A stretch of 41,524 nucleotides of DNA from contig CAZCBC010000003.1 of assembly GCA_964496775.1 (NCBI GenBank), forward strand, positions 1-41,524. The letters are read 5' to 3'. The notes beneath the pieces were generated by a model, which saw nothing but the letters and a program-made list of their open reading frames with translations, was not told the origin of the DNA and did not search any database. The position numbers were made by a program, and so were the translations under genes. Below, piece after piece: positions 128 through 31,249 of this stretch (within the stretch, counting starts at the first letter, position 1; each line of letters begins with the position of its first letter). Origin of the DNA: an uncultured Oscillospiraceae bacterium (GTDB lineage Bacteria > Bacillota > Clostridia > Christensenellales > Aristaeellaceae).

Positions 128-2155
128 TCACCACATTGGGTTGAGCCACTCAATCTCTGCCTTGAAGGGCTCCATCTTTTTTGTCAGCACGTCGAGAAGC
201 ACATCACTCGTTTCCTCAATCGCCCTCGCAAGTGGCGGATATGGTTTGTTCGTACAGTCAATTACACCATGCGCCATGTGCTCACCGTCAAAACGTCCCA
301 TCAGCGTCTGATCGTTGTACTCGAAGTAGTGCGCTCCAACACACAATGGATGTGAAGCTGCTTCTTGCAAGAACATCTTATATGCCTTACCACGTTCCTC
401 CTGGGTGGTGCAGCTCTGCAAAGCTGTGCGAAGCAGGCCAATCTCTTGTCCACCGAAATGCCACTCACCGATAATTACCGGCTTGTTCACACGTTTAGCA
501 AGTGTCAACATCGGAATAGCGCTGTGCTGATAACAATTAAAAGAAAGTACATCGAAAATTGCGCTACCGTCCACTAACTTCTCATGCAATCTTGCATGGC
601 GCAACCCAAGACACAAATGATGGTTATCCACATTTCGGCAAGCCTTAAGAGGGATTTCTCCAAAGGCCAAAATCAGAACCTGTTCGTACTCCTTAAGATC
701 CCTGAAAGCCGTTTCGCTAAGCTGTACTTCACGCGAAACCGGCTTGAGCAATATTTCAAAAGAATCAAACGATACTTTCCAAGCAACATTCAACGCCTCA
801 ATCGTTCCGTAACGTTCCTTAAGCCACTCCATCATATGGTAACGGCTCTTCAATGGTTCGTTCTTTACCAGCAGCTCGTAGGCAATGCAACAATCAATCT
901 GGAACATCCATTCCGGTTCATTATGAAGGAAGTAACCAAGTAAAAATTGATCGTCTGCCAAAGGAGCTAATTCATTTTCGGCAAACACAGCACAGTTTTC
1001 AGCATACTCACTGGAGAATACATCGGGGAAGTCGCGGAAAATAAAATGTTTTGTTTTGGGGAAACGTTTGAGCGTAACCACATACGGCAACTTGGACATA
1101 TTTAGAAAATCCTCAACCCGCTCATCAATAAAATTAACAATGCCTACACCCGTCGTATTAATTCCCCAATCCCTGAAGCGGCGAGTAGCAATTGTGCGCC
1201 AAGCTTCCCACCAGTTCTCACCAAACACACGCATCATATTAGCACGCGCCGGATTGAACATCAGATCATTACTCCGCTCAGTCTCGCCGTTGCGTTTCAC
1301 ATACTCGGCAATATGTTTAGGCTTAGTAAAAGCTCTTTTGTAAAGCGGATCTTCGGGACTGGGAGGATTAGTGTAGAAACTTTCCATCCCTGTAAACCAG
1401 CCAAATTCACCCATTCGTGTACCATAGCAGATTCCGTGTGAAAAGAACGCGTACCCGTCTGGATCCACCAACCACCAGCGTCCCCCATCATAATGCGTAC
1501 GAAACCAACCCGTTGCTTCAAACCGCTTGTCAAGGTAACCACCATAAGGAGAAAGACCACGATCGCGCACCGGAGTAGTCATTGCTGTTTGATAGTCAGT
1601 TTGCAAACGTGCGGTCATCTCTTCAATGGAGTGCGTTTTCGTTGGCCATTCATGGCCGATTAACTGTCCCATCTCGTCAATCATTGGCTTTCCCGGCGGC
1701 TCAAACCCAGGTTCCTCATCTGCGACATAAACGCGTCTGAGTTGCGCCCCCTTAAAATCCTTGCCTGGAAGGACCGTAATCACAACACGTTCTACGCTCT
1801 GTGGATCCGTCGGTAGTCCACGACAATGTGATTTGTACGCACCCGGAAAAACATGCAGAAAAAAACGGCGAGACCATAATTCGTCAATAAGCACTCGAAA
1901 AGATTGCCACATATTGGGTAACAGCTCATATTGCAACTCAAGAGGGGCATCACCATTCCTTGAATAAAACAGAGCCGCAACTTTCGCATCAGAATACTGC
2001 TCCACCAAGATATCAAAGCAAAACCACTTGTCCTCGTTCCATGGAGATTCAGGAGGTCTGTCAAACGATACAACAAGCGGATCGTCCCCATGTTTCACCT
2101 GCATACCAGGCTTTACAAACGAATAGCTCCCCTCAAACCAGGTATAAGAACTCAT
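128..2155 (-). CDS. Putative clan GH-A (beta/alpha)8 glycoside hydrolase with an N-terminal beta-sandwich-like region (GH42/GH50-like; family not assignable by eye)
   Basis: 675-aa ORF. 'GYFLHNEPEW' is an NEP acid/base-type motif and 'VIIGEWHFG' holds a candidate nucleophile Glu, in the order expected for clan GH-A. A GGAGG RBS overlaps the stop of the upstream ROK-like gene. No signal peptide. Last gene of the minus-strand array. Confidence 0.6.
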   Translation of the reverse strand: MSSYTWFEGSYSFVKPGMQVKHGDDPLVVSFDRPPESPWNEDKWFCFDILVEQYSDAKVAALFYSRNGDAPLELQYELLPNMWQSFRVLIDELWSRRFFLHVFPGAYKSHCRGLPTDPQSVERVVITVLPGKDFKGAQLRRVYVADEEPGFEPPGKPMIDEMGQLIGHEWPTKTHSIEEMTARLQTDYQTAMTTPVRDRGLSPYGGYLDKRFEATGWFRTHYDGGRWWLVDPDGYAFFSHGICYGTRMGEFGWFTGMESFYTNPPSPEDPLYKRAFTKPKHIAEYVKRNGETERSNDLMFNPARANMMRVFGENWWEAWRTIATRRFRDWGINTTGVGIVNFIDERVEDFLNMSKLPYVVTLKRFPKTKHFIFRDFPDVFSSEYAENCAVFAENELAPLADDQFLLGYFLHNEPEWMFQIDCCIAYELLVKNEPLKSRYHMMEWLKERYGTIEALNVAWKVSFDSFEILLKPVSREVQLSETAFRDLKEYEQVLILAFGEIPLKACRNVDNHHLCLGLRHARLHEKLVDGSAIFDVLSFNCYQHSAIPMLTLAKRVNKPVIIGEWHFGGQEIGLLRTALQSCTTQEERGKAYKMFLQEAASHPLCVGAHYFEYNDQTLMGRFDGEHMAHGVIDCTNKPYPPLARAIEETSDVLLDVLTKKMEPFKAEIEWLNPMW

Positions 2156-2159
2156 AATT

Positions 2160-3020
2160 TCATCCTCCGTTTTCTACTTGTACACTTTGGTCAATTTTCA
2201 GCAATTGGTCTCCCCACTCTGCATAGGCATATGCTCCCCGTAAGGCTGCATCCTCTATATGTTCAGCTCTGCAGACCGTGATGGAACAGGTTGAACAAAA
2301 TCCTTCCATCATCAGATCCAGCGCCTTGGCAATCTGCCCACCAATCACAATCCGTTCAACTGCTTGTCCTTTCAGATGCTCTGTGAGCATTTGTCCAAGC
2401 ATTTTCCCAGTTTCTTTCATTAACTCTGCCGCTCGTGTGTCACCATTCCTTGCGTAAGCCGCAATTTCCTTAACGTTCAAATCTGCGCCACCCTGCTCTA
2501 TCCATCTACGATAAATCCCCCGCCCAGAGACATAGTTTTCCGCGATACTGGAGCCATATGGCGTACTCCAAAGAGGCATCAATGGAGTCAACTTCGAATG
2601 CACCAGGACTTTTCCATTCCGAAAGAGAACAAAACCCAAACCCGTTCCAAGCATCACGCCCGCCGCATAGGAGCAACCTTTCGCAGCACCATAAATTGCC
2701 TCTCCCAGCATAAAGGCTACGCCATCATGCACAAAGACGATATCGCGTTCTGAAAGTTCTCTGTTCAAAAGTTCGCGCAAATTTACACCGTAAAGAGCCG
2801 CAAACTTGTGCTTCATTAACACTGTGCCCGCCCTGTAATCCGCAGGTCCAGGCATGCTGATAGCAATTTTACCAACAGAATTCGTTTGCAAATATTTAAC
2901 GATTGGTCGGATTATTTGTTTGACTGTGCCGTTTTCAGCAATTGGAAACATGCCTGGTTGCGTAAACTCTCCCTTTTTTACCATGCTATGTTTAACAAAT
3001 GTACCGCCAATATCCAACAT
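2160..3020 (-). CDS. ROK-like (ASKHA superfamily) sugar kinase, copy A
   Basis: Carries 'MLDIGGTFVKH' (phosphate-1 DxGGT motif), 'VMLGTGLGF' and C-terminal 'IVIGGQIA'. Collinear with paralogue 28029-28898. The ORF-track start at 3053 is a TTG; ATG at 3020 matches the paralogue N-terminus, and TTG at 3032 is also possible. No CxCGxxGC zinc motif. Confidence 0.65.
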   Translation of the reverse strand: MLDIGGTFVKHSMVKKGEFTQPGMFPIAENGTVKQIIRPIVKYLQTNSVGKIAISMPGPADYRAGTVLMKHKFAALYGVNLRELLNRELSERDIVFVHDGVAFMLGEAIYGAAKGCSYAAGVMLGTGLGFVLFRNGKVLVHSKLTPLMPLWSTPYGSSIAENYVSGRGIYRRWIEQGGADLNVKEIAAYARNGDTRAAELMKETGKMLGQMLTEHLKGQAVERIVIGGQIAKALDLMMEGFCSTCSITVCRAEHIEDAALRGAYAYAEWGDQLLKIDQSVQVENGG

Positions 3021-3286
3021 TACACAATCCAAGTTACACCTCGTTATATTCAAAACCTAACATGGCGCTCAAGGCTAAGCATCACCCGACGCACACCAAC
3101 CGTACCTGATAAATACAGATTGCAACCAGGAAATATATATTGCACCAATTTAGTACAAGCCTTGTCATCCAAGTTGCCGCAATGTTTTCCGTTGCACATC
3201 ACTTCTGCGTACATTCACTTTTCAGATAGCTAAACGGAATATCGTCATCAAGGAGAAAGCCGACCAACTCTTAGGCGCAAATACGC

Positions 3287-5080
3287 TTAACTCTCCTTCT
3301 TTAGATGAGTCTTGTGAATCGTCACAATACCGACACCAAGGTTAGTTACCCTATACTTACCAAGATTTGCGGGTACTACAACCATGTCCAAGTTGTTCAT
3401 AATATAGTACTTGCTGGGATCAGCCAATGATTCAACTTTTACCTTTTCACCATCAACTAGAGCAAGTACATGGAAAAGACCGTCAGTATTGTCATCCATG
3501 GAGGTCTCAAAAATCAGATTGCGCAAAGAGAAATACAGCAGCTCATGCTCACCTACAACGATTTCTTTCCAGCCTTCTCCCTCACGCACCAGACCTCCGT
3601 GGTTAATTAGATTTTCATCACAATACTTTTTTGTACGTTCACTACGGATAACTTCACTGCCCATTTTCAGATGAATCGGGCGCGGCATGTTGGTCTGTGG
3701 ATCAAGGCGTTGATAATCGTAAAGTTTGTAGGTATAGGAACCAACCGTCAGGCTACCGATTTCAAGAATAACCTGGTTACGACCAGAAGCGTGGATGGTT
3801 CCGGCAGGAATCATTACCTGTGTGCCGGGCTTGGATTCTATATAGTTCACATACTTTTCATAGTCAATAAGTTCACCGTTATGCTCAACTCGGCGTGCCT
3901 CCTTGAAAAACTCCTCGCAACTGTTCTCTTCGCGGAATCCCAGATATGTTTTGGCCCCCTGACCAGATACGCAAACATAATAGCTCTCATCCTGACGCCC
4001 AAGTTCATCATGATTTTTTATCACATATTCAGCGTCCGGATGACACTGGATGGACATGTTGCCTGAAGCATGGTATGTATCATCATAATTAAAGCGAATC
4101 GGAAAATAACCGCCGAATTGCTCATAGGCCTGTCTGCCCAGCAACTTCTCACCCATCATCTGCACAAAAGTAAAGAACGGCGTTTCAAACTCATAGTCTT
4201 TCGTTTTAGCAACAATAGAAACTTCCATCGGGATTACGTCAAACACCCATGCGCAATTACGCATCTCACAAGGTAAATTGCGTAAACGATGGATATAATA
4301 ACCGCCCCAAACACCCTCCAAGTATACTGGCCGACAGCGGAAAGGACGTTCACAAAGTTCTTCAAAGAGAATTCTAAGATCCTTCATGGAAAGCATCTGC
4401 ATTTTTTCTGGAATGTCCGCACTGATATAGTAATCCATACGGCCTTGCTTAATCATATTCCAGCGAACTTCTATTGCGACTTCAAAATCAACGTAGTAGT
4501 TACGGCGCATGGTCAAGCCATATGTCTGATTTGTCACTGCGCCGATGTTACGTGCATGCCCGTTTTTGTAGGCTAGAACTGCCGTTCGCGGCGTGACATC
4601 TATCCAGATGCGTACATCATAAAATAGCTGTAATTCAGGTGCCAGCGCTCCCAGGCCATAGACTACACACGCACCATCCGCTTGGAGGAGAGAAGCGAGT
4701 TTCTCAACCTTGCCAGTATCCTGCAAGCCCTTGTAACCCTCTTTATAACGACGACCATAGAGCAGGACCGGATCACGCTCCCTATCCGTAGGTAAATACG
4801 GCGCGAGCATTACTTCGATTTCATCACCTGGCTTGAGCAGTGTGGCTGCATCAATAAAGGTTACATTCGTACCTGCGCAACGCTGGCGCAGCACATTGAC
4901 AAGGCTGGCTACATCCGTACCCGGATAAGCATCAATACCTATTTTTTTCTTTTCTTTTGCCATTTGCGCAATCTGCGCGGCCACGGCATGTATACCAGCT
5001 GTTGGTAGAACACCACGACCAGTCACATTGTTTACAGCATTCGGATCACTATAAGGATGCGGGTGAAACATAAAACTCAT
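3287..5080 (-). CDS. Extended (~600 aa) class-I phosphomannose-isomerase-type cupin protein, copy A
   Basis: The C-terminal ~350 aa carry type-I PMI-like motifs 'NMSIQCHPD', 'QDESYYV' and 'VMIPAGTIHASG'. The ~250-aa N-terminal region is unrecognised. Roughly two-thirds identical by eye to 29447-31249. GAGGAAAA RBS 7 nt upstream of the ATG. Confidence 0.7.
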   Translation of the reverse strand: MSFMFHPHPYSDPNAVNNVTGRGVLPTAGIHAVAAQIAQMAKEKKKIGIDAYPGTDVASLVNVLRQRCAGTNVTFIDAATLLKPGDEIEVMLAPYLPTDRERDPVLLYGRRYKEGYKGLQDTGKVEKLASLLQADGACVVYGLGALAPELQLFYDVRIWIDVTPRTAVLAYKNGHARNIGAVTNQTYGLTMRRNYYVDFEVAIEVRWNMIKQGRMDYYISADIPEKMQMLSMKDLRILFEELCERPFRCRPVYLEGVWGGYYIHRLRNLPCEMRNCAWVFDVIPMEVSIVAKTKDYEFETPFFTFVQMMGEKLLGRQAYEQFGGYFPIRFNYDDTYHASGNMSIQCHPDAEYVIKNHDELGRQDESYYVCVSGQGAKTYLGFREENSCEEFFKEARRVEHNGELIDYEKYVNYIESKPGTQVMIPAGTIHASGRNQVILEIGSLTVGSYTYKLYDYQRLDPQTNMPRPIHLKMGSEVIRSERTKKYCDENLINHGGLVREGEGWKEIVVGEHELLYFSLRNLIFETSMDDNTDGLFHVLALVDGEKVKVESLADPSKYYIMNNLDMVVVPANLGKYRVTNLGVGIVTIHKTHLKKES

Positions 5081-5104
5081 GATATTTTCCTCGCTAATTC
5101 TTGT

Positions 5105-7171
5105 TTATTCTTCATAGAGTAGCATTACTTGATCCTGTTCAATGGTATCAGGACTACCCTGACCAGCCTTCTCCACAGTAGCCCAGCGATTCCATTGTGT
5201 ATCTTCAATAATATTGGATACTGATAACACCTTGCTGGTATCATTCCAGAGCACCAATGCATAAGTATCATCCTTAGCGCGATATAACGCACGTTTTAGG
5301 CCAGGTCCAATGTCTGCCAATTCCTGCTGTGCGTGGAATTGTCCCTCCAGCAAATATTTTCTATGCGCCTTTCGCAGATCAGAAATCTTTTTGACATAGT
5401 CCAGGTCTTCCGGCTGACGCTGTTCCTGAATAAACTTCTTATCTGTAAGGTACCGTAATTCCATCTCAAGTTTAAAGCCGTACAGGAACGCATAGTTGGC
5501 GAAGCGTCTGGAAACATAGGGATTGGGATTACGGATCGTAATCAGGGTTTCTGGAAAGGTGTGCCGAAACAATTCGGGCATGGCAGACGGCCCTGTTCCA
5601 GTGCTGCCAGCTATCAAATCATGGGTACCTGGACCTCTTTCCATAAATCCGTATTCTTTTCCACCGGGATAACTGCCAATGCCATGAATACAATCCAGAA
5701 ACTGAGAATGCACATCGGTAATATGTTCCGTCATATAAGCGAAATCTGCATATTGGTCCACTTGCTTGCGAATACGTTTATGCAGTTTTATCCTGCCCGG
5801 AGCATGAGATAGAGACGGGCGATCCTGCGGATGCTCATGGGTACTGTCAAAACAGGGGTAGGGAGGCATACCGCCGATTTGATCATACAAAACACCGTCT
5901 GCTCCAAAGCCATGGATCCAGTCCGCATTCTGCGCCATAAGTTCGTGCCAATCGCTGCAGCTGGGACAAACGGTTGCAAATGGATTTTTAGAGAAAAAAT
6001 GCAGGTAGTCGCTGTGGCAGAACTTATCATAGTACTCATAATACGGAGTTCCCCAGCGGGTCTTCCCTTCCCGCTTATGACCAGTTTCTTTATAGTATTT
6101 AGTACTAACATCAATCAAATGACCTTGGAAATATAAAGTTACACGCCCCCCCATTTCCTGCACATTACGGATATTCTCCCTAAGGGCATCTGCGCCACCA
6201 AGGGTAGGGCTGACTTCAAGATCCGGATAATGGTTATCATGACCACTATGGTACCAGCCAAACAGACCGAGGGTATCAAACCCGTGGGCTTGCGCGTATT
6301 CATACAGTTGTGGAAGAGTGTCATACGGCCATAGTTCATCTCCATACTGTTGCTTGTTAATCACCAAAAAATAACCGTTCATCGCTTGTACCCAATCCTT
6401 GGGTACCACAGGCTTACGCCAAGAAGAAGCCCAGGAAGCATACTCCTGCGCGCCCTTCATCCAATTGCCTGTATATAACCAGGCCATATAAGAAGGACAT
6501 TGCCATGTTTCGCCAGGTTTTACGAAAGACATTTTATTCATTTCCAGTGTTACTCCACCTTCTGGCGAACCCACTGCCCGCAGCGCGCTGGCGTGAAATT
6601 GATCATCTCTCCCTGTAAGATACAAGCAAGTATCCTTTCCCTCTAACATCATCCATTGCATAGACAACGGCCCGGGATAAGTCGCGGTTATTTCATGCAG
6701 TGCTTCCCGTCCAATTAGACTCATCAGGTAGGCATTGACCCCCAAAATACGTTCTCCCAGGTGCCTGGGATATAGTAAGTTCATGACGCCTTCATCCAAA
6801 CGCTCAACAGCGCCAAAGCAGGGATAAAACCATTCATTAAGGGTAGCATCGCTGTTATTAATGATAGTAGAATCGAAGTATAATTTTCCGTTTTCTACAT
6901 GGATGATCAGCTCAAGCGAAATGCTGACCAGCCCTTCCCGGGTTTGTAGGTCAGCATAACGCAGTATAATCTTGTCATCCTGAACGTCTATATCAAAATG
7001 CTGGTCATCTGAAAACGCCATTAGTTCCCAATTGTTACCAGCATGAATTACTGCGCGAAACAAGCCGGTCGGACGGCTGATGATATTTGGGCCACCAAGG
7101 AACGAAAACTCCGAAAATTGTCCAGACGCGTTTATCGCTATACGTATACCATCTTTTTCCAGAATATGCAT
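5105..7171 (-). CDS. Uncharacterised ~700-aa protein family 'X700', copy 1 (predicted intracellular TIM-barrel-like glycosidase)
   Basis: Shares collinear motifs with 11093-13150 and 32576-34774: 'GFDTLGLFGWY', 'GGRVTLYF', 'GADGVLYDQIGG', 'AYMTEH'. No signal peptide. The ORF-track start at 7189 is a TTG; ATG at 7171 has an AAGGGGGA RBS 7 nt upstream. Confidence 0.55.
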   Translation of the reverse strand: MHILEKDGIRIAINASGQFSEFSFLGGPNIISRPTGLFRAVIHAGNNWELMAFSDDQHFDIDVQDDKIILRYADLQTREGLVSISLELIIHVENGKLYFDSTIINNSDATLNEWFYPCFGAVERLDEGVMNLLYPRHLGERILGVNAYLMSLIGREALHEITATYPGPLSMQWMMLEGKDTCLYLTGRDDQFHASALRAVGSPEGGVTLEMNKMSFVKPGETWQCPSYMAWLYTGNWMKGAQEYASWASSWRKPVVPKDWVQAMNGYFLVINKQQYGDELWPYDTLPQLYEYAQAHGFDTLGLFGWYHSGHDNHYPDLEVSPTLGGADALRENIRNVQEMGGRVTLYFQGHLIDVSTKYYKETGHKREGKTRWGTPYYEYYDKFCHSDYLHFFSKNPFATVCPSCSDWHELMAQNADWIHGFGADGVLYDQIGGMPPYPCFDSTHEHPQDRPSLSHAPGRIKLHKRIRKQVDQYADFAYMTEHITDVHSQFLDCIHGIGSYPGGKEYGFMERGPGTHDLIAGSTGTGPSAMPELFRHTFPETLITIRNPNPYVSRRFANYAFLYGFKLEMELRYLTDKKFIQEQRQPEDLDYVKKISDLRKAHRKYLLEGQFHAQQELADIGPGLKRALYRAKDDTYALVLWNDTSKVLSVSNIIEDTQWNRWATVEKAGQGSPDTIEQDQVMLLYEE

Positions 7172-7316: not shown

Positions 7317-7328
7317 ACATCATTGTGT

Positions 7329-25170: not shown

Positions 25171-26601
25171 ATGCTTGATTTAAGCCGTCGCCCACGCATG
25201 GGACTACTGCTGATTTCCCCCGAGCGGTTTGCCGTAATTGGAGAGGGAACCGTCCGCGGCTCCTACAAAGAACGCAAGGAAGCGGAAGCCGCTTGGATGG
25301 TAAAAGAAGCTTCCGCCATCGCAGATGTGACTTTTACCGGAATCACATGGAATCGGGAACACGTACAGCGTTCCATTGATGCCTTTACAGCTGCCAAGGT
25401 GGATTATGTGTTGGCAATTTACCTATCTTGGGCGGAGGACTTTGCATGGATCCGTTTCCTGCGTGATATGCCGGAATGTCCGATATTGTTCTGCCATCGG
25501 ATGCGCGACCAAATTGAGTTGAAGGACACGCACGATGATGACGAGTTTGCGGAATACCTGTGCTGTGGCGGATTGGTTGGTTCGCTGGAAGCCAGCGGTT
25601 CCATCAAACGTTTTAACAGAAAAATGTTAGTCACCTTTGTGGGAACGTGGACGCAGATTCTTGAACGTGCAAAGCGTTTCGGAGCGGCAGCCCGCGCCCG
25701 AGCCCTGCTGCGGCAGAGTACATTTGGTCTGCTGGCCTGTATGAATGAGGTCATGTGGAGTACCTACGTAGATATCTATGCCCTTTTTCGGGACATTGGT
25801 CCGGAAATGCGTTTTCTGTCCGTAGCTGAACTGGAAAATACGGTAGATGCCGTTTCTCATGAGGATGCAATGACTACCATGAAACGTATTGCATCACAGT
25901 ATGAGGTGTTACCAAATGTAGATGAAGACAAATTTCTTGCTTCCGTACGGGCTTCCATGGGCATGGAACGCATGGCAGAGAAGTATAACCTTGACTTGTT
26001 GGTGCTTAACGATATTGATACAGTATTGTTTCAGCACATCGGATTGAGGCCGGGTTTCTGGCCGACCCATCCTGACGTAAGAACCATGGTAGTTCCCGAG
26101 GGTGATATCGGAAGCGGAGTTGCCTTTGCCGCACTCAAACTACTGGGCGGCGGACATGTCAACTATATTGAGCCTTTCCATGTCGATCTGCCAAGCGGCC
26201 GCTTTGACGCAGGACACGCTGGTCCAAACGACTACACGGATCCCCGGGGCAAATGCAAAATCTCTTCAGACGTACGCTTTGCCAAAACCAAATGGAAATA
26301 CGCAGGTGCGCCGTTTGCATGGTATGTTTTCCCTGAGGGACGTAAAACCATGCTACATTGTTCACAGCAAACCGGCAAGTTCCAGATGGTGGTAACGCAG
26401 GTAGAAGCCACACCCACAGAGCATTTTTTGGCAACCTATTCTCACAGTCATTTCAAGCCGATAGGCGAGGACTGTACGGCACTGTTCAGTAGACTGTTGG
26501 AGCGTGGCGTTACACAACATTACTGCATTACAGACGGCGATTTGACCGGTGCGGTCGAGGACCTGGCCATGATGCTCGGCTGCGAATTTGAGGAGGTATA
26601 A
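25171..26601 (+). CDS. L-fucose/L-arabinose isomerase-family sugar isomerase-like protein
   Basis: 476 aa. The overall pattern resembles the FucI/AraA-related family: an N-terminal Rossmann-like 'RMGLLLISPERF' segment, then 'VVPEGDIGSGVAF', 'YIEPFHVD' and 'DAGHAGPNDY' in the C-terminal part. Assignment is by eye only. Confidence 0.5.
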   Translation: MLDLSRRPRMGLLLISPERFAVIGEGTVRGSYKERKEAEAAWMVKEASAIADVTFTGITWNREHVQRSIDAFTAAKVDYVLAIYLSWAEDFAWIRFLRDMPECPILFCHRMRDQIELKDTHDDDEFAEYLCCGGLVGSLEASGSIKRFNRKMLVTFVGTWTQILERAKRFGAAARARALLRQSTFGLLACMNEVMWSTYVDIYALFRDIGPEMRFLSVAELENTVDAVSHEDAMTTMKRIASQYEVLPNVDEDKFLASVRASMGMERMAEKYNLDLLVLNDIDTVLFQHIGLRPGFWPTHPDVRTMVVPEGDIGSGVAFAALKLLGGGHVNYIEPFHVDLPSGRFDAGHAGPNDYTDPRGKCKISSDVRFAKTKWKYAGAPFAWYVFPEGRKTMLHCSQQTGKFQMVVTQVEATPTEHFLATYSHSHFKPIGEDCTALFSRLLERGVTQHYCITDGDLTGAVEDLAMMLGCEFEEV

Positions 26602-26605
26602 CCAT

Positions 26606-28015
26606 ATGGAACGCTTAAAAAAAATCGGGCGGATACAGCCTGCAAGCGCAAGGGAGATTGGTCCGTCACGGCTGGGAGTCGGCTTTGAAAAGTTGGATCG
26701 CAAAGCTTTTGATCCCAGCAACGCGTATGATAAGGTTGCAGAGTTGGGAGTGCATTATGTTCGTCTGCAATCCGGCTGGCAACGTACGGAGCGCGAAAAG
26801 GGCGTTTATGATTTCGCGTGGCTGGACGAAATCGTTGATAACATCCTGGCACGTGGACAAGAACCCTGGATAGATCTATGCTATGGCAATGATTTATATA
26901 GCGCTGATGCCCGCAAGTATTACGGTGCGGTCGGCTGTGCGCCGATCTTCTCCGATGAGGAGAAAAAAGCGTGGGAAAATTATGTGGAAGCCTGCGTGCG
27001 ACGTTACCGCGGCAAGGTTCGCTGGTATGAAATATGGAACGAGGCGGACGGAAAATGGTGTTGGAAACATGGTCCCAACGCAGCGGAATATGGCGATTTT
27101 ACCGTCGCCACAGCCAATGCAATCCACCGCGCGGATCCGCAGGCTAAGGCGATTGGCGGTGTGTTGTGCTTCATTCAAATGCCATTCTTCAAGGCCATGT
27201 TTGACCGTGGCGTCGCAGACGCTGTGGACGCTGTATCCTTCCACCGCTACAATGTGGACGAGTTGAGTGCGCTTCAAGAAATTCGGGCGTTACGTGCGTT
27301 GATTAATCGTTATAATCCGCGCGTACAGATCATTCAGGGCGAATCCGGTACACAGAGCGATTCACGAGGATGTGGAGCATTGCGCGGCGGCGCATGGACT
27401 GAGTTAAAACAGGCTAAGTATACGCTGCGTCACCGCCTGCTGGACCTCAGCTCCGAGGTGGTATTCAGTTCTCATTTCAGTGCGTTGGATATGGTTGAGG
27501 CATTGAATGGAACGGTGGGTGACAAAAGCTCTTGGCTGGATTACGGGTATTTCGGACTGCTGCATGCTGATTTTGACGCTGACGGTGTGGCCTGTGGTAC
27601 CTACTCCCCCAAGATGTCCTACTATGCAATGCAGCATTTAACAGCGATTTTCCGTGCGGATGTAAAGCCCACCGACCTCCCGATTATTCGCAGGGTAAAG
27701 GATTCACCCCGGGTCTTTGGCAAGGATGATGGCTCCAGTCGGTTTATTATGCTGGGCTTTGAAAGGGATAACGGCGCACAGGCGCTGGCCTATTGGAAAG
27801 CAGTGGACCTGATAACGGAAACCTATGATGGAACCGTGACATTGGAGTTGCCTGAAGAGAGTCGGGAAATCCGTTTAACAGATCTGATGACCGGTGATAT
27901 TTACGAACTTCCCGAAAGCATGTTGACGCGAACCGAAGGTGGCATAACCCATCTAAATCATCTGCCCCTAACGGATAGTCCGATTCTAATCACCTTTGGT
28001 GATTTTATCCGCTGA
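26606..28015 (+). CDS. Clan GH-A glycoside hydrolase, GH39-like, copy B
   Basis: 'WYEIWNEADGKW' carries NEA in place of NEP, and 'QIIQGESGTQS' matches the candidate nucleophile segment. Collinear with 13162-14589. ATG at 26606 has a GAGGAGG RBS; the ORF-track start at 26588 overlaps the upstream gene. Confidence 0.65.
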   Translation: MERLKKIGRIQPASAREIGPSRLGVGFEKLDRKAFDPSNAYDKVAELGVHYVRLQSGWQRTEREKGVYDFAWLDEIVDNILARGQEPWIDLCYGNDLYSADARKYYGAVGCAPIFSDEEKKAWENYVEACVRRYRGKVRWYEIWNEADGKWCWKHGPNAAEYGDFTVATANAIHRADPQAKAIGGVLCFIQMPFFKAMFDRGVADAVDAVSFHRYNVDELSALQEIRALRALINRYNPRVQIIQGESGTQSDSRGCGALRGGAWTELKQAKYTLRHRLLDLSSEVVFSSHFSALDMVEALNGTVGDKSSWLDYGYFGLLHADFDADGVACGTYSPKMSYYAMQHLTAIFRADVKPTDLPIIRRVKDSPRVFGKDDGSSRFIMLGFERDNGAQALAYWKAVDLITETYDGTVTLELPEESREIRLTDLMTGDIYELPESMLTRTEGGITHLNHLPLTDSPILITFGDFIR

Positions 28016-28028
28016 AACGGAGGTACCT

Positions 28029-28898
28029 ATGCTTGCACTGGATATCGGCGGAACCTTTATCAAATACGCACTGACAGATGAAAGTGGTACAATCCTGCCC
28101 GAAACCGTGGGACAAGTGCCCACCAATGCCGAGGGAAACTATGAGGACTTTCTTAATGTGCTGGCGGAGATTATCCGGCAGGCGCGCAAGTGGCAACCAT
28201 TTCATAAAGCCAGCGTCTGTATTGCAGGTCCCTTCGACTTTGACCAAGGCGTAAGCATGATGCAGCATAAGTTCAGAGCAGTATACCAAAAGTCGCTGCG
28301 GCCGCCCTTTGAACAATCTGGCGTAGATGTGAGTTTTCTTCATGATTCAACTGCCTTTATTCTTGGCGAAGCTTACGATGGGGTGCTTAAAGGCTGGAAA
28401 GCCCCCTGCTGTGTGATGCTGGGAACAGGCCTTGGTTTTGCGTTTATGCGTGATAACAAGGTGTGTGTTAACGAAAAGCGAACGCCCGCTCTCATCCTGT
28501 GGAACATGCCATGGCGAGACGGGATCGCTGAGGATTACGTTTCCACAAGAGCCATTCAAGCATTGTATGGAGAAAAACTTCCGGTCAAGAAGATTGCAGA
28601 GTTAGCGCGGCAGGGTGATGTCAAAGCTACAGAAGCATTTAAGCAAACTGGCAAACATCTTTCAGAAATCTTGAGGAAAATAATCCCCAGACTAAGCTGT
28701 GACTGTTTTGCGTTGGGCGGGCAGATTGCCAAATCGGCGGAGCTGTTCGAACTGGATGTTCCAGTCGTATGGAACGTTGCTAAGCACCTGGATGACGCAG
28801 CTCTACGGGGAGCCAGTTACTATGCCCTCCATGGACAAGCTGTATGTGAACAGGTGCCACAGCGTCTGTTTGTGGATACCGATGAGGTAAACGTATGA
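28029..28898 (+). CDS. ROK-like (ASKHA superfamily) sugar kinase, copy B
   Basis: Carries 'MLALDIGGTFIKY', 'VMLGTGLGF' and 'ALGGQIA'. ATG at 28029 has a GGAGG RBS; the ORF-track start at 27996 overlaps the upstream gene. No CxCGxxGC zinc motif. Confidence 0.65.
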   Translation: MLALDIGGTFIKYALTDESGTILPETVGQVPTNAEGNYEDFLNVLAEIIRQARKWQPFHKASVCIAGPFDFDQGVSMMQHKFRAVYQKSLRPPFEQSGVDVSFLHDSTAFILGEAYDGVLKGWKAPCCVMLGTGLGFAFMRDNKVCVNEKRTPALILWNMPWRDGIAEDYVSTRAIQALYGEKLPVKKIAELARQGDVKATEAFKQTGKHLSEILRKIIPRLSCDCFALGGQIAKSAELFELDVPVVWNVAKHLDDAALRGASYYALHGQAVCEQVPQRLFVDTDEVNV

Positions 28899-29434
28899 AT
28901 TTCTGGATCAATTTTTTTGGGGTGCTGGGCATTATTACGACCGTGGTTATTTACCAGCAAAAGGACAACCGTAAAATGCTTCTATGGAAGCTGATGACGG
29001 ATTTGTCATGGATGATCCATTATCTGCTGCTTGGCGCCAACTCAGTTGCGGTTGTAGTGTTCATTGCGATTTTGCGTAGCATCATCCTGCTCTGCCGAAA
29101 GCATCGGTGGGCACAGAGCAAAGTCTGGTTATGGATATTTCTCGGCAGCAGCCTGTTCTTAAGCATTCTGGCATGGAAAGACTGGACTAGCCTGCTGACC
29201 ACGGTGTCCTCTTTAGTCTGCATTGTTGTATTCTGGATTGGAATTCCCAAGATTACAAGGATCGTCTCAATTCCGGTTGCGCTAATGTTTCTGATCAATG
29301 TATCAATAAACGGTTCACTATGGGGAACACTTTGCGAATCCTTCCTTCTAATAAGTGCCGTGGTTGGGTTTATCCGTATGGATCTGCGCAAGGACCAATT
29401 GCAAAAGAAACAAAATATAGAAATAAACAAGTAA
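28895..29434 (+). CDS. Small polytopic membrane protein, YgjV-like
   Basis: 179 aa with about 5-6 hydrophobic segments. The N-terminus 'FGVLGIITTVVIYQQKDNRKMLLWKLMTDLSWMIHYLLLGA' resembles the YgjV inner-membrane-protein family from memory. ATGA overlap with the ROK stop suggests translational coupling. Confidence 0.5.
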   Translation: MNFWINFFGVLGIITTVVIYQQKDNRKMLLWKLMTDLSWMIHYLLLGANSVAVVVFIAILRSIILLCRKHRWAQSKVWLWIFLGSSLFLSILAWKDWTSLLTTVSSLVCIVVFWIGIPKITRIVSIPVALMFLINVSINGSLWGTLCESFLLISAVVGFIRMDLRKDQLQKKQNIEINK

Positions 29435-29446
29435 AGGAGAAAAATA

Positions 29447-31249
29447 ATGAGTTTTATGTTCCACCCCTATCCCTATGTAGATCACAACGCAGTGAATGTT
29501 ATTTCCGGGCGTGGTGTACAGCCAGTAAAGGGTGTCATCCCTGTTGCCAAACGGATTATCGCATTGCTTCGGGATGGTAAAAACGTGGGGATCGATGCTT
29601 ATCCCGGTACTGATACCCATATTTTACTCAATGTGCTTAAGCAGGTCAGCGAGGGCGTAGCTTACGAGTATGTAAATCCAGCCACGTTGCTGAAACCAGC
29701 GGACGAAATAGCGGAAATGCTTAAGCCCTATCTGCCTGAGGACCGAGATGCTGACCCTGTACTGTTATATGGTCGTCGCTATATGGGGGGCTATGCGGGA
29801 TTGCAGGTGGCGGAAAAGATAACAGCGCTGAAAGATAAACTGGCTTCCAGTCACGGCGTGCTGGTACTGGGGCAGGGAGCCTTGGCACCGGAACTGCAAG
29901 ACAGCTATGATGTGCGCGTCTGGATGGATGTAACGCCACGCACCGCTGTGCTGAATTTTAAATTCGGCCATGTACGAAATGTCGGTGCAGGAGAAGACTT
30001 GCCCTATGGATTGCTGATGCGCCGCAACTACTACGTGGATTTTGAGATTGCTGTGGATTTACGCTGGGAGTTGATTCGCAGCGAAAAGCTAGACCTTTAT
30101 ATTACCGCCGATGTGCCGGAAGAAATGCAGCTTGTATCCTTTGAAGAGTTAAAGACTCTTTTTGAGGAACTGTGCGAGCGCCCTTTCCGCTGTCGACCAG
30201 TATATTTGGAAGGTGTCTGGGGTGGTTTCTATATTCATAAGCAGCGTAATCTTCCAAAGGAAATGAAGAACTGTGCATGGGTCTTCGACCTGATTCCCAT
30301 GGAAGTGTCCATCGTCGCCAAGTTGGGAGACAATGAATTTGAAACACCCTTCTTTACCTTTGTTCAAACGATGGGCGAAAGATTGTTGGGACGCCAGGCC
30401 ATGGAACAGTTCGGCGGCTATTTCCCTGTTCGCTTCAACTATGACGATACCTACCACGGTAATGGCAACATGTCTATCCAGTGTCATCCGGACGCCGATT
30501 ATGTAATAAGGAACCACGATGAGTTTGGCCGTCAGGATGAAAGCTACTATGTTTGTGTGACCGCACAGGGCGCAAAGACTTACCTTGGCTTTAACGACAA
30601 GAATAGCTGCGAAGAATTTTTTGATGAAGCGCGCAGAGCAGAGAAAACCCATGAACTAATCGACTACGAAAAGTATATTTACGCCCTTCCCTCTGTACCC
30701 GGAATGCAGGTTATGATTCCCGCCGGTACAGTACATGCTTCAGGCCGCAACCAGGTGATACTGGAGATTGGCAGCCTGACGATGGGTTCTTATACCTATA
30801 AGCTGTACGATTATCAGCGTATCGATCCACGAAATGGCCTGCCGCGCCCAATTCACCTGAAAATGGGCAGTGAAGTTATTCGTGGTGAAAGAACAAAGCA
30901 ATGGGTCAATGACAATCTGGTCAATCACGGCGGAACAGTTCGCGAGGGTAAAGATCAACACGGGAATCCATGGCAAGAAATCATTGTTGGCGAACACGAT
31001 CTGCTGTACTTTTCGCTACGTAATCTGATCTTCTGGGATAGAATCGAGGATGATACAGACGGTCTGTTCCACGTACTGGCGCTGGTGGATGGTGAAAAGG
31101 TACGGATTTCCTCCGTGGAAGATCCCTCCAAATCGTTTGTTATCAATAGCTTGGAAATCGCTGTAGTACCTGCGTCTCTGGGCAGATACACAATTGAAAA
31201 TCTGGGCATCGGTTCAGTAACGGTTCATAAAACGCAGCTGAAGCGCTAA
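29447..31249 (+). CDS. Extended (~600 aa) class-I phosphomannose-isomerase-type cupin protein, copy B
   Basis: Carries 'NMSIQCHPD', 'QDESYYV' and 'VMIPAGTVHASG'. Begins with the same N-terminal 'MSFMFHP' as copy A. AAAGGAG RBS. Confidence 0.7.
   Translation: MSFMFHPYPYVDHNAVNVISGRGVQPVKGVIPVAKRIIALLRDGKNVGIDAYPGTDTHILLNVLKQVSEGVAYEYVNPATLLKPADEIAEMLKPYLPEDRDADPVLLYGRRYMGGYAGLQVAEKITALKDKLASSHGVLVLGQGALAPELQDSYDVRVWMDVTPRTAVLNFKFGHVRNVGAGEDLPYGLLMRRNYYVDFEIAVDLRWELIRSEKLDLYITADVPEEMQLVSFEELKTLFEELCERPFRCRPVYLEGVWGGFYIHKQRNLPKEMKNCAWVFDLIPMEVSIVAKLGDNEFETPFFTFVQTMGERLLGRQAMEQFGGYFPVRFNYDDTYHGNGNMSIQCHPDADYVIRNHDEFGRQDESYYVCVTAQGAKTYLGFNDKNSCEEFFDEARRAEKTHELIDYEKYIYALPSVPGMQVMIPAGTVHASGRNQVILEIGSLTMGSYTYKLYDYQRIDPRNGLPRPIHLKMGSEVIRGERTKQWVNDNLVNHGGTVREGKDQHGNPWQEIIVGEHDLLYFSLRNLIFWDRIEDDTDGLFHVLALVDGEKVRISSVEDPSKSFVINSLEIAVVPASLGRYTIENLGIGSVTVHKTQLKR

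Follow-up and report, generated by a model that had tools for sequence, protein, structure and literature searches.

The analyzed region, from an uncultured Clostridia bacterium of a gut or rumen setting, is probably a composite carbohydrate-utilisation super-locus, in which two separately conserved locus types stand side by side with an extra module on the minus strand. The type A section appears to occupy positions 128–10769 (minus strand) of the window, the 41,524-nucleotide stretch of DNA under analysis, and comprises an ABC importer, a GH50-like glycosidase and a TIM-barrel-like DUF6259 protein. The type B section, in our judgement, extends from 19308 to about 38015 with an ABC importer, a DUF5107 protein, a GH39-like glycosidase and a NamZ-family enzyme, and it seems to include a tandem GNAT protein, a third DUF6259 protein and GH36 as well. 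The minus-strand genes at 11093–17792 (long DUF5107, GH39-like and DUF6259) are best regarded as an extra module, placed between both loci together with a divergent sugar-sensing regulator. On balance we favour a function in oligosaccharide import, cleavage by exo-glycosidases, and kinase and isomerase steps that funnel the product to a sugar phosphate of glycolysis.

Proteins were assigned by Pfam, NCBIfam and PDB searches. Both gene arrays proposed by a sequence-only reading were found, with their open reading frames located as described on both strands. The minus arm runs from 17792 down to 128 in the order DUF5107+TPR, GH39-like, DUF6259, two permeases, solute-binding protein (SBP), DUF6259, long phosphomannose isomerase (PMI)-like, ROK and 675-aa glycosidase; the plus arm (19308–31249) is ordered as two permeases, SBP, DUF5107+TPR, 476-aa protein, GH39-like, ROK, YgjV and long PMI-like. 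The minus array had been taken as one unit and proved composite: G+C content is 0.50–0.54 over 11–17 kb versus 0.44–0.46 over 1–10 kb, a gap of 323 bp lies at 10770–11092, and a permease is the first gene of type A loci in other genomes. Nor does the locus end at 31249, since it runs on to about 38 kb. The reported absence of hallmark enzymes was borne out, as none of the 27 proteins matched GH5, GH26, GH130, GH10, GH11 or GH43 in Pfam.

In the type A section, the 675-aa clan GH-A glycosidase (128–2155, minus strand) gave only a weak GH42 match in Pfam, and phmmer aligned its residues ~300–650 with the GH50 beta-agarases 5z6p, 4bq2 and 6xj9 in the PDB (E values of 3e-44 to 8e-35). The earlier GH-A label can thus be refined to GH50-like, within or adjoining a characterised CAZy family that is polyspecific and includes both agarases and beta-1,3-glucanases (PMC11079163). 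The motif N412-E413-P414 and E564 are invariant across 11 orthologues; orthologues within type A loci share 41–74% identity. A ROK-family sugar kinase of 297 aa (2160–3053, minus strand; Pfam ROK 1.9e-21) carries no HTH domain, reaches no NCBIfam equivalog cut-off and has orthologues of 45–58% in type A loci, where the nearest orthologues (up to 78%) of the adjacent 597-aa long PMI-like isomerase (3287–5080, minus strand) are also located. The first DUF6259 protein (694 aa, 5105–7189, minus strand; 6.7e-24) is the type A partner of the GH50-like enzyme: its orthologues (44–61%) adjoin GH50-like genes in five related loci, and one of 47% is present in Sphaerochaeta pleomorpha. Importer A consists of a solute-binding lipoprotein of 497 aa (7329–8822, minus strand; SBP_bac_1, SBP_bac_8) with a signal-peptide-like N-terminus and orthologues of 49–70% in type A loci, and two BPD_transp_1 permeases (9780–10769 and 8846–9817, minus strand), which share 54–78% identity with type A orthologues versus 34–40% with the arm B permeases. 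A stable hairpin (-27 kcal/mol, z -6.1) lies 3' of the SBP gene.

The extra module starts with a DUF5107 and TPR protein of 1058 aa (14616–17792, minus strand; DUF5107 4e-52 plus TPR families), which matches PDB 5cd6, a 'TPR-domain containing protein' of unknown function, at E 2e-16. It is followed by the minus-arm GH39-like glycosidase (475 aa, 13162–14589, minus strand), with a Pfam GH39 score of 34.5 bits (cut-off 26) over residues 60–220 and a conserved N-E acid/base motif and second Glu in the alignment; none of the 80 loci of the comparison set encodes an orthologue closer to it than the plus-arm copy. The second DUF6259 protein (690 aa, 11093–13165, minus strand; 2e-15) has orthologues (65–66%) in loci L043, L047 and L048, next to genes for a long PMI and for a LacI-like regulator. 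In L043, L046 and L048, the gene for the orthologue (66%) of the long DUF5107 protein again diverges from that of a LacI-like regulator. The corresponding regulator in the window (17854–19119, plus strand) has homologues of 40–60% identity and ~377 aa in L043 and L046–L049. Pfam found in it the LacI-type sugar-binding domains Peripla_BP_3 (3.6e-20) and Peripla_BP_1 only, the LacI HTH being absent from the N-terminus; translation probably initiates around codons 38–45 of the reading frame, and the C-terminal ~90 aa, judged by eye from the translation, could form an HTH. The notion of a single governing regulator was not borne out, as a second one of 360 aa with a C-terminal LuxR/GerE HTH (GerE 1.4e-12, residues 303–354) is encoded at 38227–39309 (minus strand), with a terminator-like hairpin downstream. 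Promoter and terminator scans of the region stayed at chance level and a search for an operator shared by both arms found none, so co-regulation of both arms by the central regulator receives no support.

The putative plus-arm operon begins with the two BPD_transp_1 permeases of importer B (19308–21280, plus strand; orthologues of 60–87% in type B loci) and a 548-aa solute-binding lipoprotein (21344–22990, plus strand; weak SBP_bac_1 and SBP_bac_8 matches) with a signal-peptide-like N-terminus and type B orthologues of 54–87%. A short DUF5107 and TPR protein (657 aa, 23069–25042, plus strand; 4e-27) keeps its position in three related loci (61–63%), and is followed by the AraA-like sugar isomerase of 476 aa (25171–26601, plus strand). 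The plus-arm GH39-like glycosidase (475 aa, 26588–28015, plus strand; GH39 36 bits) matches GH39 beta-xylosidases and PslG in the PDB at E ~3e-10, has orthologues of 51–87% in 21 loci, and shows no variation at W150-N151-E152 and E252 across 22 sequences. The GH39-like proteins are also of clan GH-A, and they and the GH50-like protein retain the N-E acid/base motif of that clan along with a second invariant Glu. Further downstream are the arm B ROK kinase (300 aa, 27996–28898, plus strand; 1.2e-24), with orthologues of 53–72% in type B loci and no NCBIfam equivalog reached, a YgjV-family inner-membrane protein (179 aa, 28895–29434, plus strand; Imp-YgjV 2.4e-25) whose position is kept in eight related loci, and the 600-aa long PMI-like isomerase (29447–31249, plus strand; PDB 1qwr at E 2e-10). 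A terminator-like hairpin (31260–31294, plus strand; -17.7 kcal/mol, z -4.4) with a U-rich tract directly 3' marks the end of this putative operon. Although outside the originally delimited range of 128–31249, the following NamZ-family (GH171) gene (395 aa, 31381–32568, plus strand; NamZ_N 2.6e-59, NamZ_C 1.3e-39) belongs to the conserved type B neighbourhood, with an orthologue of 76% in the same position in a related locus; its product has no signal peptide and is cytoplasmic. A convergent putative operon on the minus strand encodes, by Pfam, a GH36 alpha-galactosidase (35907–38015), a tandem-GNAT acetyltransferase (34834–35886) and the third DUF6259 protein (32576–34774). The order DUF6259-GNAT(-GH36) after the long PMI is kept in three related loci with 68–80% identity.

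The comparison set comprised 80 loci from GTDB, each with a homologue of the long PMI. The ROK gene is adjacent to the long PMI in 69 of them and the AraA-like protein occurs in 38; the other neighbours are GH39-like (21 loci), NamZ (19), GNAT (15), DUF6259 (13), GH50-like (10) and DUF5107 (6). DUF5107 and DUF6259 had been placed in the core of the gene set, and with these counts they are accessory. The X700 family of the earlier reading is now identified as DUF6259. The conserved core is the long PMI with ROK, often accompanied by the AraA-like isomerase, a kinase-plus-isomerase module which is common among anaerobe genomes and uncharacterised. Around it, type A is made of ABC transporter, GH50-like, DUF6259, long PMI and ROK genes, and type B of ABC transporter, AraA-like, GH39-like, ROK, YgjV and long PMI genes with NamZ and GNAT. 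Conservation extends across phyla, as the cultured spirochaete Sphaerochaeta pleomorpha possesses a complete type A locus together with an AraA-like gene and an RpiR regulator. DUF5107 and DUF6259 are without characterised member; a literature search returned no mention of DUF6259, and DUF5107 appeared in an unrelated context only. No described pathway or known locus type matches the gene set, in keeping with its proposal as a candidate undescribed pathway.

The arm B long PMI-like isomerase is a fusion of a ~245-aa orphan N-terminal alpha/beta domain with the cupin core of a class I PMI. Its AlphaFold2 model (pLDDT 79) searched with Foldseek matched the PMIs 1zx5, 1qwr and that of Salmonella in the C-terminal part only (E 1e-17 to 1e-13), and the core retains the zinc-ligand and YDYxR motifs of Bacillus subtilis PMI 1qwr (SIxxHPD, E, GTxHA and YDYxR in the alignment). 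The N-domain is unmatched in Pfam and PDB, and a search of 1.84 billion representatives gave no more than 127 clusters for it. As a full protein the long PMI falls below all Pfam PMI models, and its arm A copy matches the curated model TIGR00218 manA weakly (26.7 bits, cut-off 116). In locus L056 a long PMI gene stands next to a short one, which argues against regarding the long form simply as a mannose-6-phosphate isomerase. The 476-aa protein, formerly labelled FucI-like, instead has a full-length L-arabinose isomerase fold: it has no Pfam or NCBIfam match, and the best Foldseek matches of its AlphaFold2 model (pLDDT 91) are L-arabinose isomerases (TM 0.79–0.85, E ~1e-29), with AraA also at E 1e-4 in a profile search of the PDB. 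Its invariant residues E310, E334, H349 and H450 lie in local motifs like those of E306, E333, H350 and H450 in E. coli AraA, and appear from the alignment to match the metal and catalytic positions.

The earlier sketch of ABC uptake, cytoplasmic hydrolysis, and isomerase and kinase steps fits these data: the locus enzymes have no signal peptide, the 675-aa GH50-like protein included, and lipoprotein-like ones are confined to the SBPs. In the order of steps and direction of flux that we infer, each arm would use a separate ABC system with a lipoprotein SBP to take up an oligosaccharide, which cytoplasmic exo-glycosidases would dismantle. The released monosaccharide would enter a shared funnel, be phosphorylated by the ROK kinase, and be converted towards fructose-6-phosphate by the PMI-type metal-dependent cupin isomerase with its family-specific N-domain. 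In arm B, the AraA-fold aldose-ketose isomerase may act on the free sugar or on a second released sugar. An RpiR/MurR-family phosphosugar-sensing regulator in 22 related loci and an aldose 1-epimerase in eight are consistent with a route in which free sugar is turned into a sugar phosphate. By analogy, a mannose-configured hexose is our leading guess for the funnelled sugar, held tentatively and at less than even confidence. Two isomerases and one kinase exceed the needs of mannose catabolism, which counts against mannose.

Amino-sugar or cell-wall fragments are a plausible substrate of arm B. It is possible, though rather unlikely, that arm B, perhaps along with the shared module, serves to salvage fragments of the bacterial cell wall or of other beta-hexosaminides and not a neutral glycan. 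In that case NamZ would cleave off terminal residues of MurNAc type, hexosamines that have lost their N-acetyl group would be acetylated again by the tandem GNAT, and ROK would be an amino-sugar kinase. The AraA-like and/or long PMI-like proteins would take the place of the absent MurQ-type etherase or of the deaminase step by drawing the C2 proton off the sugar in its open-chain form. To our knowledge, neither the cupin nor the AraA fold has a precedent for such a role. Arm B is indeed flanked by NamZ (both Pfam domains, E 1e-59) and the tandem GNAT, families recurring in the related loci as counted above. Minimal type B loci in Limiplasma and Egerieenecus MAGs consist of AraA-like, PMI, ROK, RpiR, NamZ, GNAT, ABC transporter and DUF4838 genes, with NamZ and DUF4838 as the sole glycosidases; DUF4838 is the catalytic domain of the GH163 and GH185 beta-GlcNAc-type hydrolases (PMC10570127). 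NamZ, GNAT and the relatives' DUF4838 point towards hexosaminides, not mannosides, for arm B. In L056, moreover, an ETF and FAD-oxidase pair of D-lactate-dehydrogenase type adjoins PMI-ROK, but this lactate link is seen in that locus alone. Against this reading, type A loci (GH50-like, DUF6259) and ~25 AraC-PMI-ROK-DJ-1 loci possess PMI and ROK but none of NamZ, GNAT and DUF4838, Pfam found no DUF4838, amidase or SIS protein in the window, and the relatives' RpiR regulators score below the MurR equivalog cut-off.

A use of beta-glucan or beta-galactan oligosaccharides is quite improbable. The ROK proteins would then be glucokinases, the long PMI a cupin-type isomerase of glucose-6-phosphate to fructose-6-phosphate, and the AraA-like protein a converter of galactose or arabinose. 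AraA enzymes do accept D-galactose and archaea possess cupin-type phosphoglucose isomerases (PGIs). The GH36 alpha-galactosidase nearby, the relatives' aldose 1-epimerase and the ROK glucokinase subfamily among the best NCBIfam matches point the same way, as do the non-marine GH50 members, which are beta-1,3-glucanases (PMC11079163). All ROK matches are nevertheless far below the equivalog cut-offs, the long PMI motifs are, as far as tested, those of PMI and not of cupin PGI, the housekeeping enzyme would make a PGI specific to the locus superfluous, and Pfam found no Leloir or tagatose pathway genes in the window.

Pairwise BLASTP confirmed that every pair aligned is homologous, with values close to the identities estimated by eye (PMI two-thirds, GH39 about half, ROK one-third): long PMI-like 67.8% over 600 aa (881 bits), GH39-like 42.5% over 475 aa (389 bits), ROK 39.1% (172 bits), permeases 33.8% and 39.6%, SBP 25.8% over ~300 aa (75 bits), and DUF5107 26.9% over ~300 aa of the N-terminal domain only (86 bits). 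The two minus-arm DUF6259 copies share 28.3% (202 bits). A paralogue for every core component had been claimed; this holds for the cross-arm pairs just listed and fails for AraA-like, YgjV and GH50-like proteins, and the plus arm as delimited contains no DUF6259 copy, the third one lying just outside. The transporter, ROK, PMI and GH39 genes are 45–87% identical to orthologues in other MAGs, closer than the in-window paralogues at only 26–42% (PMI 68%), so the arms are two neighbouring locus types, each conserved in its own right. The sequence-only reading had offered an old duplication or an assembly of two loci; the age stands, and assembly of related loci is favoured. A segmental duplication inside the genome with later divergence and shuffling, suggested by opposite-arm paralogues for nearly every component and the 68% identity of the PMI copies, is very improbable and already contradicted by the closer orthologues elsewhere, by the separate occurrence of types A and B in other MAGs (for example as L004 and L012, two contigs of a single MAG) and of type A in a spirochaete, and by long PMI identities of at least 55% across all 80 loci, so that the 68% reflects slow evolution and not recency.

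Two systems of B. subtilis bear comparison with the region. The gene set under the cell-wall reading parallels the operon murQ-murR-murP-amiE-nagZ-namZ (PMC8054146), minus MurQ and the amidase, which argues for that reading. The preferred import and funnel reading takes its guess of mannose from the other: the ROK and long PMI pair may be likened to the ROK protein GmuE and the PMI GmuF of the glucomannan operon.

Two gene arrays were identified in the window by ORF calling, one on the minus strand (17792 down to 128) and one on the plus strand (19308-31249), with a 421-codon ORF (17854-19119) between them. Searches of Pfam, NCBIfam and PDB sequences give the order of the minus arm as DUF5107 with TPR (1058 aa), a GH39-like protein, DUF6259, two permeases, an SBP, a second DUF6259, the long PMI-like protein (597 aa), ROK and a 675-aa glycosidase. 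In the plus arm, the same searches give two permeases, an SBP, DUF5107 with TPR (657 aa), a 476-aa protein that matched no family, a GH39-like protein, ROK, YgjV and the second long PMI-like protein (600 aa). Paralogue pairs were recovered across the arms by all-against-all BLASTP for the long PMI-like proteins (67.8% identity over the full length), the GH39-like proteins (42.5%), ROK (39.1%), the permeases (33.8% and 39.6%), DUF5107 (26.9%, N-terminal domain only) and the SBPs (25.8%); the two DUF6259 copies of the minus arm are 28.3% identical. These pairs denote homology rather than chance, since their bit scores range from 75 to 881 and both members of each pair share Pfam families. The sequence-only reading had described two arrays joined by homologous pairs, and this is borne out. 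Its further claim that every core component has a counterpart on the other side holds for the pairs recovered by BLASTP, but not for the 476-aa protein, YgjV and the 675-aa glycosidase, for which the same search found no paralogue on the opposite arm. The absence of GH5, GH26, GH130, GH10, GH11 and GH43 that it noted is also upheld, as no such Pfam domain is present in the window. Signal peptides are predicted on both SBPs and on none of the enzymes, which fits its proposal of cytoplasmic processing after ABC uptake.

With each GTDB species represented by one genome, a scan returned 408 stretches encoding a relative of the long PMI-like protein, and the best 80 of them, numbered L001 to L080, were analyzed. 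Almost all of these best 80 loci come from uncultured Clostridia of rumen, gut and digesters, together with a few spirochaetes, and the named groups among them include Christensenellales, Candidatus Limiplasma, Egerieenecus and Acutalibacteraceae. Closest to the window is an Eubacteriales MAG (84%). Neighbourhood counts were made by calling ORFs in the 80 loci and matching them to the window proteins. By these simple ORF-based counts, which undercount real genes unless antisense ORFs are corrected for, ROK adjoins the PMI in 69 of the 80 loci and the AraA-like protein (the 476-aa protein of the plus arm) is present in 38, followed by GH39-like proteins (21), NamZ (19), GNAT (15), DUF6259 (13), the GH50-like protein (the 675-aa glycosidase; 10), YgjV (8) and DUF5107 (6). 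The trio of DUF5107, DUF6259 and long PMI, previously put forward as co-occurring, is therefore not sustained by its neighbourhood check, and the core as first drawn was imprecise, being ROK beside PMI far more often than either DUF family. The relatives also bring in an RpiR/MurR-family phosphosugar regulator (22 loci), DUF4838 (9) and aldose 1-epimerase (8). Long antisense ORFs run across the PMI, SBP, AraA-like, ROK, NamZ and permease genes of many loci and are picked by a greedy ORF caller; the apparently conserved clusters U705, U507, U302, U502, U386 and antiPMI are of this kind and were discarded.

The loci fall into separately conserved types. Type A, represented in the window at 128-10769, has the order permease-permease-SBP_A-GH50-like-DUF6259-(aldose epimerase)-PMI-ROK (e.g. 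L012, L019, L055, L064, L073). Type B, represented from 19308 to about 38015, has the order permease-permease-SBP_B-(DUF5107 / second NamZ)-AraA-like-GH39-ROK-YgjV-PMI-(NamZ) with a convergent DUF6259-(DUF4838)-GNAT-(GH36) (e.g. L001, L003-L009). A minimal type B, AraA-like-PMI-ROK-RpiR-NamZ-GNAT-ABC-DUF4838, is found in Limiplasma and Egerieenecus (L066, L079, L080). The third type, seen in about 25 loci/species (L022-L045 and others, e.g. L024 9050-13802), consists of a divergent AraC followed by long PMI-ROK-DJ-1/PfpI and sometimes a GDSL hydrolase, with an MFS transporter and DUF6198 upstream in several; no glycosidases are encoded in it.

The plus arm had been closed at 31249, but its type B neighbourhood runs on to 38015. 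A NamZ-family (GH171) protein, cytoplasmic by prediction, is encoded at 31381-32568 (Pfam NamZ_N 2.6e-59, NamZ_C 1.3e-39), and a convergent operon at 32576-38015 encodes, by Pfam, a GH36 alpha-galactosidase, a tandem-GNAT acetyltransferase and the third DUF6259 paralogue. The order of NamZ and then convergent GH36-GNAT-DUF6259 is syntenic in L001, L003 and L004. To us, the GNAT of type B is reminiscent of GlmA, the GlcN acetyltransferase of Clostridium acetobutylicum. Towards the end of the window (39750-41524), a 313-aa protein possesses a signal peptide and only a sub-threshold DUF4367 match. The ORF at 40870-41508 (-) has no matches, overlaps another ORF and gives an Ala/Arg/Pro-rich translation, and its status as a gene is doubtful.

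A cultured spirochaete, Sphaerochaeta pleomorpha Grapes, possesses type A in full, at about 1.718-1.730 Mb of CP003155.1 (stretch compared: 1718096-1740183). It is arranged as AraA-like-RpiR-ROK-long PMI, divergent from permease-permease-SBP-GH50-like-DUF6259 (SpiGrapes_1590). The transporter, GH50-like, DUF6259, long PMI and AraA-like proteins are 41-63% identical to those of the window, and ROK about 32-35%. The module thus crosses phyla, and these similarities imply that it was transferred between them. The locus also offers a direct experimental entry point in a cultured organism.

Comparison with these loci shows that the two arms have separate ancestries. The minus-arm genes are closest to type A loci elsewhere (permeases 54-78%, SBP 49-70%, ROK 45-58%, PMI up to 78%) and the plus-arm genes to type B loci (permeases 60-87%, SBP 54-87%, ROK 53-72%, GH39 51-87%, PMI up to 84%), whereas identity between the arms is 26-42% except for the PMI at 68%, a value that is uninformative on recency because no long PMI protein falls below 55% identity anywhere in the 80 loci. 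Types A and B also occur on different contigs of one MAG (L004 and L012). A recent segmental duplication is rejected on this orthology comparison; old paralogy with assembly of related loci, as the sequence-only reading had it, agrees with each arm being closer to the matching locus type elsewhere than to its opposite. The minus arm is itself composite. In other genomes, the first gene of type A loci is the permease; in the window, 10769 and 11093 are parted by a gap of 323 bp, and the G+C content is 0.50-0.54 over 11-17 kb (the segment of the longer DUF5107 protein, GH39-like and DUF6259) against 0.44-0.46 over 1-10 kb, with 0.40 around the permeases. Moreover, an orthologue (66%) of the longer DUF5107 protein is divergent from a homologue of the central regulator in L043, L046 and L048, as in the window. 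The G+C difference fits an array made of two modules of different history.

The central regulator (17854-19119) has a LacI-type sugar-binding domain (Peripla_BP_3) and no N-terminal HTH; the listed TTG probably lies some 40 codons ahead of its true start, and a C-terminal HTH is suspected. This LacI-type-sugar-binding regulator takes the place of the RpiR of the relatives. It may not be the single regulator it had been taken for: a second one at 38227-39309 carries a C-terminal GerE HTH and an N-terminal 300 aa of no assigned family. A very stable hairpin (7286-7318 (-), z -6.1) follows the SBP_A gene inside the operon. Terminator-like hairpins follow the plus-arm PMI gene, where one closes the operon (31260-31294 (+), z -4.4), and the second regulator gene (about 38165-38197 (-), z -4.6). 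Consensus promoter and terminator scans stayed at chance level, and no convincing operator motif common to the intergenic regions of both arms was found.

The class I PMI fold occupies the C-terminal ~350 residues of the long PMI-like proteins (3287-5080 (-) and 29447-31249 (+)), where Foldseek matches the PMI-type double cupin to 1zx5, 1qwr and the Salmonella and Candida PMIs (E 5e-17 to 8e-11). In the HMM alignment to 1qwr, the B. subtilis PMI, all four motifs are kept (the His of SIxVHPD, Glu, the His of GTxHA, and YDYxR), and Q345, H347, E365, H430, Y454-D455-Y456 and R458 are invariant in 38 long PMI sequences. By profile, the proteins are far from known PMIs: one copy scores 26.7 bits with the curated manA model TIGR00218, whose cut-off is 116.2, and the other is not matched by it; no Pfam family was assigned, and the proteins fall short of every Pfam PMI model. 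The N-terminal ~245 residues (29447-30181) form a confidently predicted alpha/beta domain in the AlphaFold2 model. Nothing significant was found for this domain in Pfam (E up to 5) or in a PDB-sequence profile search, and the Foldseek matches of the full protein are dominated by the cupin part. When 1.84 billion representative proteins were searched exhaustively, only 127 clusters with this domain emerged. It nearly always starts at or close to residue 1 of the matched protein; the longest matches, of about 590-620 aa, are as long as the whole fusion, while most others look like fragments, so the domain appears nearly confined to the long PMI-like family. Many Asp, Arg and Tyr residues in it are invariant, and the listed invariant positions (D50, D99, D103, R111, D161, R165, K172, R192, R193, D198, E200, R206) suggest a functional site. 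By eye, the domain gives the impression of a degenerate uridine-kinase/PRK-like fold, a claim we do not make. The exact sequence of the PMI of the window is not on record. In public data, the family runs to over 3,000 protein clusters, and the sole source names seen for them are "class I mannose-6-phosphate isomerase", from Clostridia MAGs. In one Spirochaetales MAG (L056 10001-17278), a long PMI-like gene is directly followed by a short PMI-cupin of canonical size, after which come ROK, a fused ETF and a D-lactate-dehydrogenase-type, FAD-linked oxidase. The adjoining long and short PMIs suggest different activities or roles of the two forms; the putative link to lactate is a single case.

The 476-aa protein (25171-26601) had been labelled FucI-like, but the structural matches point elsewhere. 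Its AlphaFold2 model (pLDDT 91) adopts the three-domain fold of AraA over the full length, with TM of 0.79-0.85 and E of about 1e-29 to the AraA structures 4r1o, 7chl and 2ajt in Foldseek, while FucI and D-arabinose isomerase come lower at about 1e-16. A sequence profile finds AraA in the PDB at E 1e-4; neither AraA nor any other family was matched in Pfam or NCBIfam, and identity to AraA is just 14-18%. Four residues (E310, E334, H349, H450) are invariant in 40 homologues, and their local motifs and spacing resemble E306, E333, H350 and H450 of E. coli AraA, which we take to be its metal and catalytic residues, although the hhalign alignment is weak and does not reliably span the region. Compared with AraA as represented by the E. 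coli, Geobacillus and Thermotoga structures, the full-length fold is common and the invariant Glu/Glu/His/His are probably equivalent, but the genetic context is different. No ribulokinase (araB) or AraD was found in the window or related loci, and the protein is never beside araB/araD; its partners are instead the ROK kinase and the PMI-like protein, and its substrate is therefore probably other than L-arabinose.

The glycosidase-like proteins are a cytoplasmic set with conserved catalytic residues. The C-terminal ~350 aa of the 675-aa protein (128-2155) align to the GH50 agarases 5z6p, 4bq2 and 6xj9 (E 3e-44 to 8e-35; four GH50 structures matched), and N412-E413-P414 and E564 are invariant. 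The similarity across the catalytic domain and the clan GH-A Glu residues would place it in GH50, so that its earlier description as GH-A was imprecise: the PDB matches (E ~1e-44) make it GH50-like. No substrate follows from this match because the family is polyspecific, containing beta-1,3-glucanases such as Fsa16295Glu as well as agarases (PMC11079163). By comparison with the family, the GH50-like protein here is predicted to be cytoplasmic, occurs in terrestrial or gut anaerobes, and is always paired with DUF6259, without GH117, GH16, GH86 or an anhydrogalactose pathway. None of these enzymes, including those of anhydro-L-galactose catabolism, was found among the 27 window proteins or in related loci. 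An agar or porphyran locus, which the GH50 match brought to mind, was rejected in view of these missing genes, the non-marine hosts and the polyspecific family. The two GH39-like proteins (13162-14589, 26588-28015) score 34.5 and 36 bits against the Pfam GH39 cut-off of 26 over about 160 residues and match GH39 structures in the PDB at E ~1e-10, with N151-E152 and E252 invariant; by these scores they are at best distant GH39 members. The three DUF6259 copies (85, 57 and 118 bits; Pfam gathering threshold 28.7) and the two DUF5107 copies (177 and 95 bits; 24.4) are assigned well above threshold. A profile of 15 DUF6259 members gave a short match to GH129 alpha-N-acetylgalactosaminidase in the PDB (E 6e-4, ~47 residues), too weak for an assignment to GH129, and one copy has a sub-threshold GHL6 match. 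Invariant acidic residues of DUF6259 copy 1 include D431 and E488. DUF6259 is probably a TIM-barrel glycosidase-like protein. In the literature searched, DUF6259 is unmentioned, DUF5107 has no functional description, and no characterised member of either was found.

Besides two ABC importers with lipoprotein SBPs and the glycosidase-like set, the locus has a ROK kinase, a PMI-type cupin and an AraA-fold isomerase as its conserved module. From this gene content, we propose that oligosaccharides would be imported and hydrolysed in the cytoplasm, and that the free sugar would be phosphorylated by ROK, a step with which the aldose 1-epimerase of the relatives is compatible. The long PMI-like enzyme would then isomerise the sugar phosphate towards fructose-6-phosphate, and the phosphosugar may serve as the signal in relatives carrying RpiR. 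For the sugar so funnelled, a mannose-type hexose is our leading guess, held tentatively and at somewhat less than even confidence; ROK paired with a class I PMI is the typical mark of a route that channels mannose, GmuE/GmuF of B. subtilis being an example. Caution is needed because the long PMI is far from manA, because long and short PMIs lie side by side in L056, and because an AraA fold is unneeded for mannose. Were plain mannoside catabolism true, this would be an ordinary Gram-positive utilisation locus with unusual glycosidases.

Somewhat doubtful, yet possible, is that the AraA-fold isomerase, ROK and the long PMI-like protein make up a new catabolic route for a sugar outside the standard pathways. 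The sugar could be of the MurNAc type or another hexose that is substituted or carries an amino group, in which case the cupin or the AraA-fold enzyme would stand in for the MurQ etherase or for a deaminase; it could also be a rare hexose. New glycosidase specificities or families feeding the route might then be represented by DUF6259, DUF5107 and the cytoplasmic GH50-like and GH39-like proteins, in a module widespread among uncultured gut and rumen Clostridia and exchanged with spirochaetes.

We consider it rather unlikely that arm B serves the scavenging of hexosaminides or peptidoglycan fragments, with one of the two isomerases perhaps substituting for MurQ. The recurring NamZ, tandem GNAT, RpiR and DUF4838 do parallel the murQ-murR-murP-amiE-nagZ-namZ operon of B. 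subtilis (PMC8054146), except for the etherase and amidase. A NamZ-family enzyme is present in the window too, and in the relatives it is joined by the RpiR/MurR-family regulator and the beta-hexosaminidase-type DUF4838, along with a kinase or an uptake step for the sugar. In GH163 and GH185 beta-GlcNAc-type hydrolases, the catalytic domain is DUF4838 (PMC10570127). However, the window has no MurQ etherase, amidase or GH3 NagZ (no SIS, amidase or GH3 protein by Pfam), and the only SIS proteins found in the relatives are RpiR-type regulators carrying an HTH_6 domain. The NamZ here is predicted to be cytoplasmic, in contrast to the secreted B. subtilis enzyme, and the PMI-ROK core also occurs without NamZ, GNAT, RpiR and DUF4838. 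A beta-glucan or galactan substrate, with the long PMI in a cupin PGI-like role, is improbable.

The long PMI-like family is common, and most of its carriers are uncultured Christensenellales-like Clostridia of gut and rumen, whose carbohydrate niches are poorly known. Identification of the substrate would give annotation to a sizeable block of "hypothetical" gut-metagenome genes, would probably establish DUF6259 and DUF5107 as glycoside hydrolase families, and would clarify the joint role of the orphan-domain PMI cupin and the divergent AraA fold.

Among known systems, the gmuBACDREFG operon of B. subtilis carries the ROK kinase GmuE and the class I PMI GmuF beside transporter and glycosidase genes. 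As in that operon, the ROK kinase of the window is accompanied by a class I PMI-type isomerase, an oligosaccharide transporter, glycosidases and a regulator, by which a hexose would be funnelled to fructose-6-phosphate. The window differs in possessing ABC importers rather than a PTS, in a PMI of about 600 aa that falls short of the manA model and has an orphan domain at its N-terminus, in the AraA-fold isomerase as an extra core member, and in glycosidases that are GH50-like, GH39-like, DUF6259 and DUF5107, with no GH26 mannanase or GH1 phospho-glycosidase. No Pfam match to the beta-mannan/glucomannan markers GH26, GH5, GH113, GH130 and GH1/GH2 mannosidase was obtained in the window. Gram-positive polysaccharide utilisation loci, of which we take the Roseburia beta-mannan locus as an example, share with it a regulator, an SBP-dependent ABC importer, intracellular glycosidases and downstream sugar-phosphate enzymes. 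In contrast to the Roseburia-type mannan locus, the window has no GH26, GH113, GH130, CE2, CE17 or epimerase, and encodes no extracellular endo-acting enzyme. The defining enzymes of the described mannan, agar, xylan and MurNAc systems were each looked for and are absent, so the locus is not a member of any of them; a literature search returned no description of a module combining ROK, PMI and the AraA-like protein, nor one under the SpiGrapes locus tags. The sequence-only reading, which matched the locus to no known one, is confirmed on this point. What is known here is the architecture of a Gram-positive utilisation locus, and what is new is a widespread catabolic module with several candidate new glycosidase families.
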